A DNA stretch of 64,000 nucleotides from Candidatus Bathyarchaeota archaeon (GCA_963772455.1 CAVYXJ010000013.1:83163-147162); one strand, 5' to 3'. Counted from the stretch's first letter, positions 1-7,471 are shown. Made by a program: numbers and translations. The notes: generated by a model not told the origin, from the letters alone.

Positions 1-2
1 TC

Positions 3-196
3 GGAAGCCGCATGCTCCACAAAAGGCTCAGACAGCTCGTTTTCCGGATGCGCGTACGTAAACGGAATTTTCCGCAAAGCAGGGCTTAATCTTTGCCCTT
101 GATTCCCCTAACGCGCGGGGCTCCTGCTTGGAGGTTTTATGTCATCGCTGTCGGGCTCTGCGGAAAAGCATGTGGCTTTCAAACGAAGTTGCGTTT
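3..196 (+). ncRNA. Unassigned structured RNA/ssDNA element with pseudoknot potential
   Basis: 14-bp helix 3-16/167-180 (2 G-U), helix 26-36/147-156 crossing helix 68-76/159-167, hairpins 42-46/63-67, 81-85/95-99, 105-108/117-120, 121-124/130-133, 181-185/192-196; followed by T-rich tract. Confidence 0.45.
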
Positions 197-245
197 CATC
201 AATCCCCTTTTTCATTTTTTATTATTATTAACGGAGGTGAATTAC

Positions 246-902
246 ATGAATAACAAAGTAGGAAAACTCATAAAGACAATATCAATCGATAACAAGCCAG
301 AACTTGTTCAGCATATTGAGAAACAATCGAATTTCAGCAACTACGTTCAAACACTCTTAGAGCAAGACCTTGCAAGACTTCACGCAACACAGCAACAAAA
401 ACAGACTGAAGCGAAAATAGAGCTAACAAAAGATGAATACCTCACATTCGAGCATTGTAAAAAATATTTCAGAGAATATGGCGGTATGACCTATGCAAAG
501 TACTTCCATTACTTCCCTGTGCAAATAAGCTCCGACCATCTGAATTGTTTATTGTTAGATGTTTATGATATTTGTAAAACGTATGCTCCAACAACCGCCG
601 AATACATTAAGCATATTAGAGAAAACGATGAAGACTTTGATATCTTCTACGATAAAATAAGTCGTTATTGGCAACAAGAAAATCCAATACCTGAAGACTG
701 GAAGAAAGAAATCATACCTGGAATGACATTGCATGAAGCACTTTCAAAGATTATACCTGAAGCTATCAAGCTAAAAGACAAAGATATTCCATTAACAATC
801 AAACGAATCAGCGAGATAGTGGGGTTAACCTATCAGCAAACATACACACAACTAATGCCACATATCAGACCTATTCTAAAAGAGCTACAGGTTGAAGTTT
901 AA
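246..902 (+). CDS. Hypothetical DNA-binding protein, N-terminal ribbon-helix-helix-like and C-terminal HTH-like segments
   Basis: GGAGGTGA RBS at 234-241 favours ATG 246; KTISID..PELVQHIEK..FSNYVQTLLEQDL RHH pattern; LTIKRISEIVGLTYQQTY HTH pattern. Confidence 0.6.
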   Translation: MNNKVGKLIKTISIDNKPELVQHIEKQSNFSNYVQTLLEQDLARLHATQQQKQTEAKIELTKDEYLTFEHCKKYFREYGGMTYAKYFHYFPVQISSDHLNCLLLDVYDICKTYAPTTAEYIKHIRENDEDFDIFYDKISRYWQQENPIPEDWKKEIIPGMTLHEALSKIIPEAIKLKDKDIPLTIKRISEIVGLTYQQTYTQLMPHIRPILKELQVEV

Positions 903-1720
903 TAATAATAAAAAAAAATAAACCCTTTCTTTTTTGTTAAACTAATCGAGGCAATCTTAACCTGATGTTTCCTTAACGTTAACATGAATAGTGAAGTCAG
1001 CGTTACCGCAGTAAACAGCGTTATAATTGCTAACAATGAAAACTCTGGAACAGTGGGAGTTGGCGTTGGATTGGGAGTGGGAGAAGCAGATGAAGTTTCA
1101 CCGATGGTTATTGTTTGTGTATCGCTCCAATCGCTTGTTTCACCGATAAAAGTCCATCCGCTTGGACTTGATTCAGAGTTATAGCTAATGTAGCCTATGA
1201 ATGCTTTAACTTGAAAATCAATTTGGGAGTCAGGTGGTAACGTTGGACCGAACCCATTCCATCCAGCCGATGAATAGTCTCCTTTATACGAAAAAACCGA
1301 ATACTCTGTTTTTAATTGGGCATCTTCTACCGTCAACATAGCATATTCATCATAGGGGTAATACTTCTGATGCCAGTCTTTTTCAAAATGTCCCTTCCAA
1401 TGAATCTCATAGTGAAGATAAACAGTCCTGTCCCCAATCTGTTCCTTGATTGTAAAAGGGGTGAATGGCTGATTCTTTACCGAAAGTTGAATGGTTCTTG
1501 ATTCAACATGCCGTCCAGCCTCGTTTATAACCTGTCCGTTGAAAGGGTTTACCGTTGAAGAAGGTGGAATATCATAAGAGGAGTCGATAAGGGTAACATT
1601 AAACTCAGGCACAGAGGGTTTAGGTATTGACTGAGCATATGCAGATTCAATCATTATCAGACTTGAAACTGCTAAGACAATAACAAGAAGTAACGAGAAC
1701 CCTTTGCCGATACTGCCCAT
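899..1720 (-). CDS. Secreted PEF-CTERM-type membrane-anchored surface protein (family A paralogue 1)
   Basis: Signal peptide ..AYAQSIPKPSVPEF; Pro/Thr linker PTPTVPEF + TM helix + basic tail RKH. Confidence 0.8.
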   Translation of the reverse strand: MGSIGKGFSLLLVIVLAVSSLIMIESAYAQSIPKPSVPEFNVTLIDSSYDIPPSSTVNPFNGQVINEAGRHVESRTIQLSVKNQPFTPFTIKEQIGDRTVYLHYEIHWKGHFEKDWHQKYYPYDEYAMLTVEDAQLKTEYSVFSYKGDYSSAGWNGFGPTLPPDSQIDFQVKAFIGYISYNSESSPSGWTFIGETSDWSDTQTITIGETSSASPTPNPTPTPTVPEFSLLAIITLFTAVTLTSLFMLTLRKHQVKIASISLTKKKGFIFFYYY

Positions 1721-1744
1721 ATCAAGTACTAAGAGAATAGAAGC

Positions 1745-1753
1745 GATAAAAGG
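1745..1753 (-). promoter_or_regulatory. TATA box of leaderless promoter
   Basis: CCTTTTATC on minus strand, 26 nt from ATG 1720, same spacing as other array genes. Confidence 0.55.
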
Positions 1754-2225
1754 TTTATTCCAAAAAACTATACTATTTCAATTCTCCTAATTTGATTCGC
1801 TTTGAGAGTTGTTGTACTTTTCGAGGTTGCTTCGTTGTTGGTATCGTAAATGTTGAGAAAGCTAAAAGCTGCAAATTCCATTAGAAATAGGTTTAAGATG
1901 GAAAAACTCCATTCTTTTGCTAATGTTCACCGCGTGGGTATCGTGGCAGATGAATGCTGTTTCATTGAACATGTTTGCAATTATCGAAGCTAAAATTTGA
2001 AGTAAACATTGAAACAAGGTAAAATATGCCTTAATTTTCAATTTTACAGAGAATTTTTACTCGATTTTCAACGAAAAAACATATTAAAAAGTCTGAAAAT
2101 TTAGGCAATTATACTTTTTTATACATAGATGAAAATGCAATTCGATAACATACTTTACTTATCGCAAACCTTCTTTGAAAACGACCGATCAACCACCCTC
2201 TGATCGCAACACAAAAAAAACTTAC

Positions 2226-2249
2226 TTTGTTAAAGTTAAGTTTATCAAG
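2226..2249. repeat. Imperfect palindrome, 9-bp arms with 6-bp spacer
   Basis: TTTGTTAAA-GTTAAG-TTTATCAAG (7/9 arm match); identical left arm at 933-941. Confidence 0.35.
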
Positions 2250-2281
2250 CTTTTCATTATAAATTTAGTTTATGCTTTTTC

Positions 2282-3226
2282 CTAAACGTTTGGTTTGTTT
2301 TGAGAGATGGTTTTTCGATGAGTTCTGTAAAACAGAAGATAGATAATAACTATAACTAATACGACAAATACGAATGGAACTATTAAGACAAAATTGTTGT
2401 CAGATACTTGAGAAGGCGTTGGCGTAGGGGTTTGCATCGGAGTTGGTAAAGGTTTTACTGAGGGCAAAGGCAAAAACGGTTCTGTCTTAATCAAATAAAT
2501 CCTTCCTGTTCGTGGATTATCGAATAAATTATATCCAACACCCAAAACAGCGAGTGCACCATTAGATGTTTCAATTATCGAAGAAATCTCAAGAGGAGCA
2601 GTGCCATCACCACCAGTGTAGGTCAGGTTTATTATCCATTGAGTGTTGTTATTTGAATCAGTTTTAATAAGGCTGCCTTGTTCTCCATAAACAAACCCGC
2701 TATCACTTGTTTGAACGAGAGTTGGAGCACTGCCTAAGTCTGGTACACTTGAATAATTTTGAATCCATTGGATGTTTCCTTGAGAATCTGTTTTAATTAA
2801 AGTAGGAGTGAATTCACGTGCCCCTCCGCCAATTAAAGCGGAAAACCAGCTTCCTGATAATTCATATCCTTCATCGCTTGTTTGGATAAATGTTGTTGCT
2901 CTAAAGTAACTGATGGTTTTATTCCATTGTAAATTGCCTGATGAATCAACTTTGTATAGGGTTGATGGTCTAATAGTGTACTGGTATGACCAACCCAAAT
3001 TCACGAAAACGTACCCTCCATCACTTGTTTGAATTAGGTTTGAAGTTGATTCAACATTAGTGTCGCCATAAGGACCAGAATCACCGTAATCTTTTTGCCA
3101 TTGTATAGTGGGAGCAGAAGTAAATGTGGTTGATTGGGCTTTCACGGTTGCAGGTTCAAGTGTAATTAAAGAAGTTAGGAACAACGCAACAAGAACCAAT
3201 GCAAAACTCTTGCTTTTCTTACCCAT
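2282..3226 (-). CDS. Secreted, C-terminally anchored protein with beta-propeller-like repeats
   Basis: Signal peptide; repeated IQTSDGGY / LxKxDSxGNxQW motifs; Pro/Thr linker, TM, basic tail. Confidence 0.75.
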   Translation of the reverse strand: MGKKSKSFALVLVALFLTSLITLEPATVKAQSTTFTSAPTIQWQKDYGDSGPYGDTNVESTSNLIQTSDGGYVFVNLGWSYQYTIRPSTLYKVDSSGNLQWNKTISYFRATTFIQTSDEGYELSGSWFSALIGGGAREFTPTLIKTDSQGNIQWIQNYSSVPDLGSAPTLVQTSDSGFVYGEQGSLIKTDSNNNTQWIINLTYTGGDGTAPLEISSIIETSNGALAVLGVGYNLFDNPRTGRIYLIKTEPFLPLPSVKPLPTPMQTPTPTPSQVSDNNFVLIVPFVFVVLVIVIIYLLFYRTHRKTISQNKPNV

Positions 3227-3248
3227 AGTAAGCTGATAGAACCATTTC

Positions 3249-3284
3249 AGATAAAAGACTTCTCGTTCAAGACTCTTGACTAAG
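3249..3284 (-). promoter_or_regulatory. Array promoter plus half junction motif
   Basis: CTTAGTCAAGAGTCTTGAACGAGAAGTCTTTTATCT (minus strand); 35/36 identical to 4992-5027; TATA 25 nt from ATG 3226. Confidence 0.7.
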
Positions 3285-3348
3285 CACTATTTGCGTTTTC
3301 TGTATGTATTATTTAGGCGAAGATGTCAGAGCATTCAGTAGATAAGTA

Positions 3349-4062
3349 TTAGGAATAGAAAATAACTTTGAGATATTTTTGCTCACTTTTTTTGTTCTTC
3401 AATTGCGATATAAGTGTAACAGTAATTATTGCTGCAGCAATTAGAAAAGCAACACCTATGTATAGATACAAATTATCCTTCTCCATTTGGGCAGTATAAG
3501 TTACCAAATACTCTTTAAAGTCAAAAACTTGTACGAATCCTCCATGTAGAAAAATTGCAGTATAGTAATTGCCTGATTCTGTAGCCCTAAAAGCTACTGC
3601 TCCATTCTTCCTTGCTACATTTGATGCCTCAAAATTAGTTCCATTTTTACTTGCCCATGCCGAGAAGTCAAAACTGTTATTGTTTAACTGAATAACAACT
3701 GATTTAAAGTTGGTAAATTGTTGCTCAGAAAAAATGAAGCCAGTTACGTAAATATCTGTGTCCCACTTAGCTTCTATGCCTTGTCCTGCGTGGAGAGATA
3801 TTGGTGGTAGATTGAGAAAATCAGTATTAGGTGGCTGAAATGGAGGATAATAATAGTTCCCATTTAGGTATGTGTTATTTACTGATGCTACTGGATTTGG
3901 GTAGTTTATGTTTGGAGTATCAGTTTGATAAGAACTCCTTATTGGAGCAGTATGTGGAGAAGCAAAGTTGAGAGAGATAAAAAATGCGCCCGTTAGAAGC
4001 AATATTAAGATAACTATTTTTACTATATTTCTAAGTCTGAATCTCTCTACCTTTGGCTTCAT
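3349..4062 (-). CDS. Membrane protein with two terminal TM helices and a glycosylated extracellular domain
   Basis: N- and C-terminal hydrophobic helices, several NxS/T sequons; start set at ATG 4062 by promoter spacing. Confidence 0.7.
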   Translation of the reverse strand: MKPKVERFRLRNIVKIVILILLLTGAFFISLNFASPHTAPIRSSYQTDTPNINYPNPVASVNNTYLNGNYYYPPFQPPNTDFLNLPPISLHAGQGIEAKWDTDIYVTGFIFSEQQFTNFKSVVIQLNNNSFDFSAWASKNGTNFEASNVARKNGAVAFRATESGNYYTAIFLHGGFVQVFDFKEYLVTYTAQMEKDNLYLYIGVAFLIAAAIITVTLISQLKNKKSEQKYLKVIFYS

Positions 4063-4088
4063 ATCCATATTCTGTAAGATGTTAGTCC

Positions 4089-4146
4089 ATAAAAGCCTTG
4101 CAGTAAACAATTCTTGACTGAGATTCGTAAAATTTCCTTTACTAAG
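4089..4146 (-). repeat. Full junction motif (4112-4146) plus TATA (4089-4095)
   Basis: Minus strand CTT-AGTAAAG-GAAA-TTTTACG-AATCTC-AGTCAAG-A, ungapped alignment to 5017-5051 and 7071-7105. Confidence 0.7.
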
Positions 4147-4968
4147 TTAAGTTTGTGTTTTTTGTGGTAGACCAACAAACCAGCAGATGACACCATAATA
4201 GTTCAGTAGCAGAGGAATTGTCCATAAGGGAAACTCTGGAACTGTCGGGGTGGGTGTCGATGATGTTATGGTTGGAGTTGGTGTTAAATTTGGTGAGGGT
4301 GAGGTTGAAGTGGAAGTTGGAAGAGGTTCAGGATAAATCAATGTTGGATATGGGGAATTATCAATACTGCTTGCAAAAACGTTTGCAGTATCACTTTGGT
4401 TAATTGTCACAGTAAGCGTATTGCTCCATCCACTATCTTGACCATTAATCACGGGATAGGGAAAAAGTGGTTGTATAACCCAGCTTTGGTAGCCAATCAT
4501 AGATATTACTTGAACATCAATCACTGAACCTTTAGAAAAATCTTGGTGGATAGTGAAATAGGTAAAAACAGAACTATAGTTTCTATTTAGGAAGCCCTCG
4601 TCTTCTCCGCCATAAAGATATTGCCAATATTCACCAAAGTGTCCCTTATAGCGGACATTGTAGAAGAAGTTAAGGTCACGTCTTGTACCATTGGGGTTTG
4701 TTAGTACAAACTGGTTGAAGGGTTGATTTTTGATTTTCCCTTCAATTTTTATATCGGTAATATGTCTGCTGGGAATAGTCGTTTGTTGCCCAGTATAGGG
4801 GTCTGTTTGGATTGTTGCAGTAGTATCATATGAATTATCAACCACTTGGATAGAAAACTGCGGAACAGATGGTTTAGGAATAGTTTGAGCATTGACGGAT
4901 TCTGTCAAAAATACAGAGAAGGCTAAGATAACTACAATTAGTACTGAGAAACCCTTGATACATTCCAT
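4147..4968 (-). CDS. PEF-CTERM-type surface protein (family A paralogue 2); +1 frameshift in TM anchor at ~4202
   Basis: MECIKGF..AQTIPKPSVPQF; PTPTVPEF; removing one A restores LLLTIMVSSAGLLVYHKKHKLNLVK matching its neighbour. Confidence 0.75.
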   Translation of the reverse strand: MECIKGFSVLIVVILAFSVFLTESVNAQTIPKPSVPQFSIQVVDNSYDTTATIQTDPYTGQQTTIPSRHITDIKIEGKIKNQPFNQFVLTNPNGTRRDLNFFYNVRYKGHFGEYWQYLYGGEDEGFLNRNYSSVFTYFTIHQDFSKGSVIDVQVISMIGYQSWVIQPLFPYPVINGQDSGWSNTLTVTINQSDTANVFASSIDNSPYPTLIYPEPLPTSTSTSPSPNLTPTPTITSSTPTPTVPEFPLWTIPLLLNYYGVICWFVGLPQKTQT

Positions 4969-5785
4969 GTTTAAGGTTAGGGTTGGTTTGTAGATAAAAG
5001 ACTTCTCGTACAAGACTCTTGACTAAGAGCAGTAAAACTTTCTTGACTAAGTTGTGTTTGTGTTTTTTGTGGTAGACCAACAAACCAGCTAACACCAGCG
5101 TTATTGTTAGTAGTAGCGGAATTGTCAATGAGGAAAACTCTGGAACGGTAGGAGTTGGCGTTGAATTAGGTGAGGGTGAAGTTGAAGTGGAAGTCTCAGG
5201 TATGGTTATTGTTTGTGTTTTACTCCAACCACTTGCTTCACCTGTAAAAACCCAAGGAGCCAAAGGTAGTTGCTGGTCTCTGAAGGAATTGCCTATCAAC
5301 GCTTCAACTTGAAAATCTGCTTGACTGCCTGAAGGAATACTCAAAATTCTTAGACTCGAATGCAAAGACTCTGCTCCCGACAAAGCGAATGAAATGATGG
5401 TACTTTGATTTCCTGAATCTTGACTTGGATATGCATCAGGACTAAAAAGCTCCTGCCAATCGGTTGAAGAATGTTCCTTCCAGCGAACATTATAGAAAAA
5501 TCCAATTCCAAAGGTATCATCAACATAAGGTTGATTCTTAATAATTATCTTTACGGCACTATATTCCATATGATATCCATTATCATTAGCTTCAAACAGT
5601 CCAGTGCTGGGATTAAGAGAGTAAGTTGGTGGTTTGTCAAAAGATGGACCTATTAACTCTAAGGTGAATTGCGGAACAGATGGTTTTGGTATTGTTTGAG
5701 CATTTACAGATTCAACCATCAGTAGACTTAGACTTGAGATAGCCATTGTTAAAATCAGAACTATTGCTAAATTCTTGCTATTCAT
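4874..5785 (-). CDS. PEF-CTERM-type surface protein (family A paralogue 3); reads through junction motif into the next gene
   Basis: AQTIPKPSVPQF..GEASGWSKTQTITIPE..PTPTVPEF, TM, HKKHKHNLVKKV; no stop until 4874. Confidence 0.75.
   Translation of the reverse strand: MNSKNLAIVLILTMAISSLSLLMVESVNAQTIPKPSVPQFTLELIGPSFDKPPTYSLNPSTGLFEANDNGYHMEYSAVKIIIKNQPYVDDTFGIGFFYNVRWKEHSSTDWQELFSPDAYPSQDSGNQSTIISFALSGAESLHSSLRILSIPSGSQADFQVEALIGNSFRDQQLPLAPWVFTGEASGWSKTQTITIPETSTSTSPSPNSTPTPTVPEFSSLTIPLLLTITLVLAGLLVYHKKHKHNLVKKVLLLLVKSLVREVFYLQTNPNLKHGMYQGFLSTNCSYLSLLCIFDRIRQCSNYS
4992..5051 (-). repeat. Full junction motif (5017-5051) plus BRE/TATA promoter
   Basis: Minus strand CTT-AGTCAAG-AAAG-TTTTACT-GCTCTT-AGTCAAG-A then GTCTTGTACGAGAAGTCTTTTATCT; TATA 26 nt from ATG 4968. 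Confidence 0.75.
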
Positions 5786-7022
5786 TGGTGGTCCTTCTAT
5801 GCTTGAGGTAAACTGCAGCTAAGAGTACAGGCACAAAGAATGTTAAAATTGCCAATACTGGAAACTCTGGAACGGTAGGTGTAGCTGTTGGTGACAAGGT
5901 AGGTGTTGGTTTAGGGGTTGTTGTAGGGGTTGAGGTGGGAATCGTTGGTGCTTCAGGGTTTGGTGCAGTTAAAAAGGGTGTGAAATTGACTGTACCTAAA
6001 TTGAAATCATTCTTTTTATCATGGATTGTTTGGCTTATCATTGCTGAATTGGTTGTTCCCCACCAATTATTAGTAGCATCCACATTTTCATTAGCTTCTG
6101 GAGCTAAGTGTATGTTTTCAGAGTTTCCGTAGATATTGTTGTTATTAATGCGTGGAGTAGGGTAGGCGATTATGCCAACTGTATTGTTAACTATTGTATT
6201 CTTTAGAATAATGCTATGGCTTGCCACTATTCCTTGATAGTTATTGATGACTATGTTTTCTTCAACCCTGCAAGAAGGACCTGATTTGATCCCAACTTTG
6301 CACCCATAGACTGTATTATTAGATAGAACATAGATGTCATGAAAACTGTTGTAAATAATGCCTATTTCTCCACCAATAACCGTGTTGTTTGAAATCGTGG
6401 AGGCATCATCGTCTGTATAAATTCCCCAATTAATGTTATGAACTACATTGCCTGAAATCGTTGCTGAAGACTTAAAAATTGACATCGTATCCCATTCGCC
6501 AAATATTTCATTGTTCGTAATTATAGTTGAACTATATTGACAGCTTATGTATCCTGTTATTGTGTTGTCGTTTATTTTTGGGGATGTGCCATTAATTTTT
6601 ATCCAGATTGATTTTAATATGGAGTTTTCTATTATGGAGCCTAATTGTGTGTTTTTGTTCCAGCTTGGGCTTGGATTCATAAATTCGATATATGATGCTC
6701 TATTATCGCCACCGTTGAAATTTACTTTTTCAGTGTTGCTGCCTTTTGCATTTATTGTGCCATTTACTAATAGGTAATGGTTGTTAAGGTTTACAGTGGC
6801 TCCAGAATCAATTGTTAATGTTGCTCCTTGACTTATGGCTACAGGACCTGCAAGATTGTATGGGCTGTTTGCTTTGGTCCAAGTTGTATCTGAGTTTATT
6901 ATCATACTGTTGATGGTAGTACCGTTTTGAGCTAATCCAAAAGGTGTAGTTCCAACAATTATTAAACTCGATACAGCCATAATTAGAACAAGGAATACTG
7001 CAAAACTCTTACTTACACCCAT
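5778..7022 (-). CDS. Right-handed beta-helix (NosD/PbH1-like) PEF-CTERM surface protein
   Basis: Repeated TISNNTV/IxNN motifs, NVDATNNWWG signature, PTVPEF + TM + KHRR. Confidence 0.8.
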   Translation of the reverse strand: MGVSKSFAVFLVLIMAVSSLIIVGTTPFGLAQNGTTINSMIINSDTTWTKANSPYNLAGPVAISQGATLTIDSGATVNLNNHYLLVNGTINAKGSNTEKVNFNGGDNRASYIEFMNPSPSWNKNTQLGSIIENSILKSIWIKINGTSPKINDNTITGYISCQYSSTIITNNEIFGEWDTMSIFKSSATISGNVVHNINWGIYTDDDASTISNNTVIGGEIGIIYNSFHDIYVLSNNTVYGCKVGIKSGPSCRVEENIVINNYQGIVASHSIILKNTIVNNTVGIIAYPTPRINNNNIYGNSENIHLAPEANENVDATNNWWGTTNSAMISQTIHDKKNDFNLGTVNFTPFLTAPNPEAPTIPTSTPTTTPKPTPTLSPTATPTVPEFPVLAILTFFVPVLLAAVYLKHRRTTNE

Positions 7023-7045
7023 AGTCAACTTATAGAACTCATTTT

Positions 7046-7105
7046 AGATAAAAGACTTCTCGTAAACGTCTATTGACTAAGCCAAGTCAAGGTTTCTTAA
7101 CTAAC
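7046..7105 (-). repeat. Leading junction motif (7071-7105) plus BRE/TATA promoter
   Basis: Minus strand GTT-AGTTAAG-AAAC-CTTGACT-TGGCTT-AGTCAAT-A; perfect TTGACT-N6-AGTCAA inverted repeat; TATA 26 nt from ATG 7022. Confidence 0.75.
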
Positions 7106-7189
7106 AAAAGGTAGACCTTCCACCTCGCCGCCATTCCTATAAAGGTGCATCCGGACAACAGACACGTGTAAAACGTGGAGGTCAACAAA

Positions 7190-7471
7190 ATGATAACACA
7201 AGTTAGTTCAACAATCGAGTTAAACCCTGAATTAGCGAATTTAGCCTATGAAATGGGTTTAAATGCGTCAAAAATCTGTGAAAACGCCCTTAAATCGGCA
7301 ATAAGGTGCCTTCAAGGCGTGAACTTGAATAAGTGTTTGGTGGACGAGCCGGGATTTGAACCCGCGACCTCCACGATGCCAACGTGGCGATCATGCCAGA
7401 CTGATCTACTCGCCCAAATTTATCTGGCTTCTGAAAGTTACCCCGCCTCATTTAATAAGCGTTTCTTATAG
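7190..7471 (+). CDS. CcdA-antitoxin-like RHH ORF reading antisense through tRNA-Ala; probable int(N) fragment of an SSV-type split integrase
   Basis: TATA ~7137, GGAGGT RBS 7177-7182; ELANLAYEMGLNASKICENALKSAI; continues in frame as LVDEPGFEPATS (antisense tRNA). Confidence 0.55.
   Translation: MITQVSSTIELNPELANLAYEMGLNASKICENALKSAIRCLQGVNLNKCLVDEPGFEPATSTMPTWRSCQTDLLAQIYLASESYPASFNKRFL
7338..7415 (-). tRNA. tRNA-Ala: tRNA-Ala(GGC), CCA encoded
   Basis: Acceptor GGGCGAG/CTCGTCC with G3:U70, anticodon arm CCACG-TTGGCAT-CGTGG, GTTCAAATC T-loop. Confidence 0.95.

Follow-up and report, generated by a model that had tools for sequence, protein, structure and literature searches.

Does the motif that recurs along an archaeal array of surface-protein genes serve to shuffle these genes or to express them? 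The array lies at the left end of a stretch of 64,000 nucleotides (nt) from Candidatus Bathyarchaeota archaeon (GCA_963772455.1, CAVYXJ010000013.1:83163-147162), which we call the window and whose positions are counted from its first letter. It comprises six minus-strand genes next to int(N), a fragment of an integrase gene (Table 1), and copies of a tripartite motif of 35 nt stand at several of its gene boundaries. An earlier note on this DNA had read the arrangement as an integron-like cassette array in which a recombinase captures genes at the motif, and had named as its alternative a transcription activator's operator copied along with the promoter. We find the alternative to be the better reading. 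It is probable, in our assessment, that the motif is a pair of operators defining a regulon at surface-gene promoters and that the array is cargo of an integrated element of the Sulfolobus spindle-shaped virus (SSV) type.

The junction motif as part of a probable operator-promoter block

Full copies of the motif at 4112-4146, 5017-5051, and 7071-7105 and a half copy at 3274-3284 could all be read in the sequence as previously located, and all lie on the minus strand, which is that of the genes. With up to one mismatch allowed, the 11-mer CTTAGTCAAGA occurs seven times in the window, compared with a mean of 1.11 in shuffled sequence, and none of 100 shuffles reached seven. A repeat finder showed the copies to be part of a longer, 63-nt block that is present four times (3245-3307, 4083-4145, 4988-5050, and 7042-7104; 71 to 100% identity) and that includes the transcription factor B recognition element and TATA box (BRE/TATA). 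Every block is found immediately 5' of a minus-strand gene, with 20 to 25 nt between the end of the TATA box and the ATG, which bears out the placement of the motif just upstream of a core promoter near a start codon.

The same architecture is found across the genome under study (G000; C numbers denote its contigs and other G numbers its relatives). Downstream of the 9-mer TAGTCAAGA, the distance to a TATA-like hexamer peaks sharply at 26 nt. A position weight matrix (PWM) of the proximal unit plus BRE/TATA identified 30 promoters on 11 contigs at a score of 24 or more, and the column profile of these 30 has high information solely in AGTCAAGA, in TT.AC four bases on, and in CGAGAA-N3-TTTTAT. 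The operator unit is the dyad GTCAA-N6-TTGAC, with the consensus AGTCAAGA-N4-TTTGAC. Its proximal copy abuts a strong BRE/TATA that lies 20 to 31 nt from the ATG (measured from the TATA box), and in 20 or more promoters the TATA box follows the operator start by 26 nt, so that dyad symmetry is combined with a fixed position relative to the core promoter. Allowing up to one mismatch, there are 57 dyads in the genome versus 5 to 11 in shuffled genomes, and 36 of the 57 are linked to promoters.

A second operator unit is often present farther upstream. Its AGTCAAGA stands at -24 in 15 of the 30 promoters, in agreement with the 24-bp direct-repeat period described earlier, and the unit is at -25 in 2 promoters and at -35 in 5. 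The tripartite motif corresponds to the whole distal dyad together with the left half of the proximal one. With half-sites alternating at intervals of 12 bp, its arms can be paired correctly both as inverted pair and as direct repeat, as had been done. The appearance of a junction has its origin in tandem arrays, where the distal operator of one gene reaches into the last codons and the stop of the gene before it, and the canonical tail (...LLVYHKKHKHNLVKKV) ends on a TGA located within the TTTGAC half-site.

Some details of the original description need correction. The copies do lie at gene boundaries, but not at every boundary: gene 899-1720 has, in the upstream sequence as we read it, a TATA box of its own and no operator, and gene 4874-5785 lacks a separate promoter, since its start is shared over 8 nt with the upstream gene 5778-7022 in an operon of the two. 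Nor is the best-conserved copy the one that adjoins int(N). The PWM ranks the copy at 5017 first, followed by those at 3274, 7071, and 4112 (scores in Table 1).

Most genes of the predicted regulon encode anchored surface proteins

The predicted regulon holds about 30 genes, most of which encode secreted proteins with a C-terminal anchor resembling PEF-CTERM. Signal-peptide-like sequences were found in 22 of 27 distinct open reading frames (ORFs) downstream of the operator-promoter versus 420 of 1,627 in the background, and the combination of signal peptide and C-terminal anchor in 14 of 27 versus 172 of 1,627 (odds ratio 9.1, p = 1.7e-7). The array genes themselves encode surface proteins, as had been proposed. 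Four of the window proteins share with the PEF-CTERM/archaeosortase system (TIGR03024) a Thr/Pro linker, a PEF motif, a hydrophobic helix, and a basic tail, and the genome has proteins of the exosortase/archaeosortase family (PF09721 homologues on C11 and C10). The likeness has limits, as many regulon members are anchored but lack the PEF motif; the TIGR03024 match at residues 214-242 of the product of gene 4874-5785 reaches 13 bits, below the cut-off of 23.

Among the members without a signal peptide are a sugar epimerase/dehydratase-like protein and a protein of 312 amino acids (aa) with a C-terminal winged helix. The former is encoded at G000:C10:282758-283738 as an NAD-dependent epimerase/dehydratase-like gene (N terminus GGAGFIGS) under the same operator-promoter, a hint that glycan synthesis and the surface proteins are regulated together. 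The latter, at G000:C10:75486-76424 (L013:187-1125, minus strand), has a Cys-rich N terminus in addition to its winged helix (HTH_45, E value 1e-8). The operator-promoter is upstream of this gene and likewise upstream of its orthologues in G011 and G001, and the protein is a weak candidate for the regulator or for an autoregulated member of the regulon.

Conservation in the genus and the putative regulator

The operator-promoter is not peculiar to one genome. The combined pattern, with up to two mismatches, has 24 hits in this genome and is present in 20 of 24 other species of the genus, with up to 18 hits per genome; the reversed pattern, used as a control, gave no hits in any of 41 genomes. 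Outside the family, 1 of 16 genomes from other families of the order had operator-promoter hits. An exact search with 32 nt of the promoter identified 22 metagenome contigs, and 31 of 35 downstream ORFs in metagenome contigs and loci of other species were signal-peptide-like. The dyad thus marks many unlinked promoters of functionally related genes, on 11 contigs here and in 20 of 24 congeners, as operators do.

Most likely, a DNA-binding protein found throughout the genus would bind the dyads as dimers, two dyads lying 24 bp apart with half-sites alternating every 12 bp, and would activate or at least co-regulate transcription. We infer binding, and activation rather than repression, because the site sits immediately upstream of the BRE. 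The tandem arrangement of two upstream sites resembles that of Ptr2. Dyad-symmetric sites directly upstream of BRE/TATA, at several unlinked promoters that make up a functional regulon, are likewise known for the archaeal regulators Tar, TrmBL1, and EarA: Tar (TK0271) binds the palindrome TGGACA-N8-TGTCCA just upstream of BRE/TATA (PMC6737238), TrmBL1 activates when its TGM motif is upstream of BRE/TATA (PMC4706686), and EarA acts at the fla promoter (PMC5512572). The present site differs from these in its sequence (GTCAA-N6-TTGAC), in its lineage (Bathyarchaeia), in its regulon of secreted, anchored surface proteins with a regulator that is predicted, and in the overlap, within tandem arrays, between its distal copy and the stop codon of the gene before. 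Our verdict is an archaeal activator regulon that has not been described before but is ordinary in kind; a literature search for a cis-element of PEF-CTERM genes brought up nothing relevant, as judged from titles and abstracts.

It is conceivable that no dedicated regulator exists and that the block instead forms an extended core promoter, recognised by a paralogous variant of transcription factor B (TFB) or TATA-binding protein (TBP) devoted to envelope genes. The BRE/TATA part is indeed conserved as strongly as the operator. However, dyad symmetry and tandem repetition at 24 bp are typical of dimeric regulators and not of TFB/TBP contacts, and operators also occur at -35 and other offsets, so we judge this explanation quite unlikely.

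The binding protein might also come from the element that carries the array. In that case int(N), which resembles ribbon-helix-helix (RHH) proteins, or the product of ORF 246-902 would occupy the motif as an arm-type or immunity site. In favour of this, int(N) shows a weak CcdA/RHH likeness at its N terminus and has a promoter divergent from one of the motif copies. Against it, the motif is abundant in genomes that have no int(N) homologue, and ORF 246-902 has no homologue in any of 60 other genomes of the genus. Phyletic distribution rules out either protein as the general motif-binding protein, and we give the idea next to no credence.

Evidence against the motif as a recombination site

The integron-like interpretation holds that a tyrosine recombinase captures, excises, or shuffles self-promoted cassettes at the tripartite motif. 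Several features invite it. Inverted arms surround 4 to 6 bp at gene boundaries, an integrase fragment is adjacent, and in L088, a locus from another organism considered below, homology begins within 1 to 2 nt of the outer edge of the motif. As in an integron, a gene array in one orientation sits beside a fragment of a tyrosine-recombinase gene, with a repeat at the unit boundaries.

The remaining evidence points the other way. The motif is locked to a TATA box at fixed distance and stands 5' of some 30 unlinked, dispersed single genes on 11 contigs, a distribution conserved in the genus and one that the earlier note had itself named as refuting gene capture. Strand exchange by tyrosine recombinases requires matching overlap regions. 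The arms are present here, but the spacers differ in all three copies (AAAG, AAAC, and GAAA in one spacer; GCTCTT, TGGCTT, and AATCTC in the other). There is no motif 3' of the terminal array genes (899-1720 and 2282-3226). Single-stranded DNA of the three copies, on both strands, folds no better than shuffled sequence (z scores from -1.04 to +0.85), and no attC-like hairpin was seen. In place of promoterless cassettes under a common Pc promoter, each motif copy has its own BRE/TATA, and in place of an intact IntI-type integrase beside attI, the adjacent ORF covers residues 1-73 only, its putative catalytic counterpart lying 10 kb away in three frames. This recombinase belongs to another family than that of integrons, is broken, and uses a 46-nt attachment (att) site in tRNA-Ala rather than the motif. 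Finally, G001, G008, and G013 have 13 to 18 motif hits each and no match to the neighbouring integrase. Genome-wide dispersal, fixed TATA spacing, variable spacers, the missing hairpin, and the genomes free of this integrase together largely refute the motif as a recombination site, and there is hardly any chance left that genes are captured at it.

A 15-kb insertion at tRNA-Ala(GGC)

Window 7082-7383 is repeated 10 kb leftward at C13:80265-80567, over 303 nt with 88% identity. The repeated DNA takes in the region of the divergent promoters, int(N), and, as its last part, 46 nt from the 3' half of tRNA-Ala. The promoter at 7042-7105 lies within the repeat from 7082 onward. Over residues 1-73, int(N) shares 84% protein identity with the start of an integrase ORF at C13:80359; past att, the frame simply continues antisense across the tRNA. 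Beyond att, the left copy leads instead into a probable tyrosine-integrase catalytic domain, int(C), in three frames, in which TGLRRSE (like box I), LRVWF, and a terminal SY can be recognised by eye. This region, interrupted by two frameshifts, has hits below the cut-off to Pfam PF00589 and PF16795 and matches PHROG integrases with E values of 3e-6 and 4e-7. The int(N)-like ORF of the earlier note is therefore truly the N-terminal half of a split SSV-type integrase: the repeat ends at about residue 73, within the tRNA, which places att inside the int ORF.

The tRNA-Ala site is empty in three relatives (G011, G001, and G019). In the closest of them, G011, which is 87% identical in the inositol-phosphate synthase gene of the flank, about 245 nt separate tRNA-Ala from the orthologue of C13:74681-75320; the empty site implies that about 15.1 kb were inserted, including all window sequence left of 7338. 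A tRNA target, a direct repeat, and an empty site are thus found together. We read the insertion, which holds the whole array, as two tandem element remnants: E2 (C13:80522-90545), which has ORFans and six surface genes between int(C) and int(N), and the older, truncated E1, with four surface genes and an int(N) that has become joined to int(C) of E2. An SSV-type element would have integrated into the 3' half of tRNA-Ala(GGC) and split its int gene; int(N) would have remained at 7190 beside the tRNA, and int(C), frameshifted, would have come to lie 10 kb to the left, fused to int(N) of the older sister element. Both remnants carry surface genes under the operator-promoter of the host.

SSV1-like and cryptic archaeal elements have the att site within int and split the gene into N- and C-terminal parts on integration into a tRNA gene, int being divided upon integration in SSV1-like integrases (PMC6563490). 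NitEve-E3, described in the same paper, resembles the present element in its small size of about 10 kb and in having no recognisable viral genes. Unlike the known SSV1-like elements, the locus has two tandem copies that reconstitute a hybrid int gene with a frameshifted int(C), its left element is without int(C) and attL, and its cargo consists mostly of surface-protein genes under a host-wide operator-promoter.

The tRNA-Ala site is a hot spot of integration. Fragments of int(N) adjoin tRNA-Ala in six other species (G002, G056, G023, G054, G015, and G071), with different cargo in each; in G002 the cargo includes three anchored surface proteins with operator-like sites. An int(C)-like remnant in G073 adjoins a different tRNA-Ala (CGC) in the opposite relative orientation, and supports the pairing of int fragment and tRNA, not an identical att geometry. 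The integrase at the same tRNA in G022 was considered as a relative of this one and proved unrelated. At the tRNA-Ala site a metagenome contig has toxin-antitoxin and TIR genes. L071:2997-9234 and L033:129-7694 show the same site in relatives with other cargo, one with a MazE/PIN pair, an int-like ORF with a CcdA-like N terminus, and a TIR-domain (CAP12-PCTIR) gene, the other with a different PF00589 integrase, an HNH endonuclease, and a TrmB-like regulator. Exact protein look-up found no close strain. G071, whose int(N) and tRNA match at 97%, was rejected as one, being only 84 to 89% identical overall and having two copies of the locus; the P0003 contig has a flank gene that is 92% identical.

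Table 1. Features of the array, its promoters, and the insertion site (window positions; PWM, score with the operator-promoter matrix)
Feature	Position	Strand	Remarks
Window share of the ~15.1-kb insertion (C13:~75344-90499) at the tRNA-Ala 3' end	1-7337		Right-hand ~7.3 kb of element E2
Element-borne ORF, 218 aa	246-902	+	From ATG at 246; 93-902 from TTG by the ORF lister
Surface-protein paralogue 1, 273 aa	899-1720	-	Signal peptide, Thr/Pro linker, PE-type C-terminal anchor
Repeat R, 330 nt	2017-2343		3' end of gene 2282-3226 plus downstream non-coding DNA
Secreted protein, 314 aa	2282-3226	-	C-terminal anchor; tail ends in ...RKTISQNKPNV
Promoter, single (proximal) operator plus BRE/TATA	3245-3284	-	PWM 47.6; block D1; half copy of the earlier note
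Membrane protein, 239 aa	3349-4065	-	Hydrophobic segments at N and C terminus
Promoter, tandem operators (degenerate copy) plus BRE/TATA	4083-4146	-	PWM 35.1
Surface-protein paralogue 2, 273 aa	4147-4968	-	PEF motif
Surface-protein paralogue 3	4874-5785	-	
Promoter, tandem operators plus BRE/TATA	4988-5051	-	PWM 50.8; best fit to genome-wide consensus; distal operator extends over the end of the upstream gene
Parallel beta-helix surface protein, 414 aa	5778-7022	-	PEF motif and anchor
Promoter, tandem operators plus BRE/TATA	7042-7105	-	PWM 45.7; divergent from int(N) promoter
int(N), N-terminal fragment of SSV-type integrase	7190-7471	+	~Residues 1-73, CcdA/RHH-like
tRNA-Ala(GGC), integration target	7338-7415	-	ARAGORN; Rfam RF00005, 52.6 bits
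att core, 46 nt of tRNA 3' half	7338-7383		Repeated at C13:80522-80567 with 1 mismatch

Genes carried by the array

The array units, described earlier as unrelated or diverged, are not all unrelated. Genes 899-1720, 4147-4968, and that starting at 5785 are paralogues, and the DNA repeat families D2, D4, D8, and D11 are common to the three. For the 273-aa family (gene 4147-4968) 336 homologues were found, all of them unnamed or hypothetical, and sequence searches of Pfam, NCBIfam, and PDB gave no relatives of this family or of the 314-aa protein. Paralogue 2 has its anchor-tail nucleotides (window 4147-4215) one frame off the canonical ...AGLLVYHKKHK, giving ...ICWFVGLPQKTQT without the basic tail, and may be a decaying copy or contain an assembly indel. 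In paralogue 3 the usual TGA stop in the distal operator reads TTA (5032-5034), which extends the ORF from 5785 by about 55 codons across the next promoter, as far as 4874. The TIGR03804 repeat in the beta-helix protein is just under cut-off, and its paralogue in E1 is a strong NosD/Beta_helix match.

Repeat R is 88% identical to C13:75571-75899 at the left edge of the insertion, and about 80 nt of it also follow related genes in metagenome contigs. The non-coding gap of 560 nt between paralogue 1 and the 314-aa gene (1721-2281) contains, at 1925-1960, a degenerate fragment resembling a tRNA anticodon arm (CACGTGGGTATCGTGGCAG), oriented opposite to tRNA-Ala; a second copy is at G000:C13:75470-75512, also at the left edge of the insertion. 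The fragment may be an old att remnant of another element. ORF 246-902 had no match in Pfam, one weak match in PHROG that is itself of unknown function, and no relative in viral contigs. Upstream of it, window 3-196 is GC-rich and has no match in Rfam at gathering thresholds.

Elsewhere in the genome, surface-protein genes with the operator-promoter make up most of two short contigs, C16 (8.5 kb) and C24 (7.5 kb). Such arrays probably interrupt the assembly, and their true number and context are therefore underestimated.

Possible exchange between surface-gene units

Several observations weigh against the combination of operator regulon and integrated element that we favour. The family of the winged-helix candidate regulator was not found in G005, a genome with six motif hits. 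The integrase is frameshifted twice, which may reflect decay or an assembly error in this metagenome-assembled genome. Neither attL nor int(C) of E1 could be found on the left side of the insertion, which makes E1 a remnant and its history a reconstruction. Lastly, the junction blocks are 92 to 97% identical over 33 to 99 nt between units whose gene bodies cannot be aligned, an identity that exceeds what operator constraint alone would need.

This last point raises the possibility, compatible with the operator role, that homologous recombination exchanges cassettes. RadA-mediated recombination or gene conversion would duplicate, delete, and swap surface-gene units, and the anchor tail, operators, promoter, 5' leader, and signal peptide would act as portable homology between arrays and mobile elements. 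Beyond the near-identical blocks beside unalignable bodies, a tail-coding stretch of 31 nt is identical in four copies, synonymous sites included. The unit in L088 is 92% identical to window 4232-5050, its homology starting at the outer edge of the distal operator, and thus has the body of gene 4147-4968, yet it has a tail of the other type (...SQNKPNV, followed by R sequence) and a different genomic context. L054, the tRNA-Ala island of a relative, has a left flank that is 88% identical and different surface genes, one of which is 90% identical to a gene on C24 of the present genome, and the gene content of the island varies between species. These comparisons, however, are between species at about 85 to 92% identity and not between strains, and the same picture would result from ordinary duplication, loss, and transfer over long times; part of the conservation is accounted for by functional constraint on promoter, signal peptide, and anchor. 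We therefore hold such exchange to be possible, on the unlikely side. The more specific proposal, that a junction module of anchor tail, tandem operators, promoter, and signal peptide doubles as portable homology between arrays and SSV-type elements, seems to us somewhat more doubtful still. If it is true, Bathyarchaeia, for which there is no cultured genetics, would have a system of mobile cassettes that fit the regulon and vary the cell surface.

On the contig of L088 (L088:8877-10825; ENA ERZ25039459 contig_36081), the end of a Cas1-family gene (344 aa, PF01867) lies 8 nt upstream of the surface-gene operator-promoter. In addition to many small ORFs, the contig has ParB_N and a NosD-like gene with an operator. 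This neighbourhood may be casposon-like or another mobile context.

Implications for Bathyarchaeia

For this locus, a false lead is removed, as there is no new integron-like recombination system here. What the operator regulon and integrated element that we favour offer in its place is a concrete handle on surface regulation in Bathyarchaeia, abundant sediment archaea with almost no experimental genetics: an operator-promoter that marks about 30 envelope genes per genome and makes promoter-based prediction of the surface proteome possible. Some of the surface genes travel on tRNA-integrated SSV-type elements, and related species differ in them, an observation suggesting that mobile DNA diversifies the envelope of these archaea; such diversification would be relevant to virus-host and cell-cell interactions.

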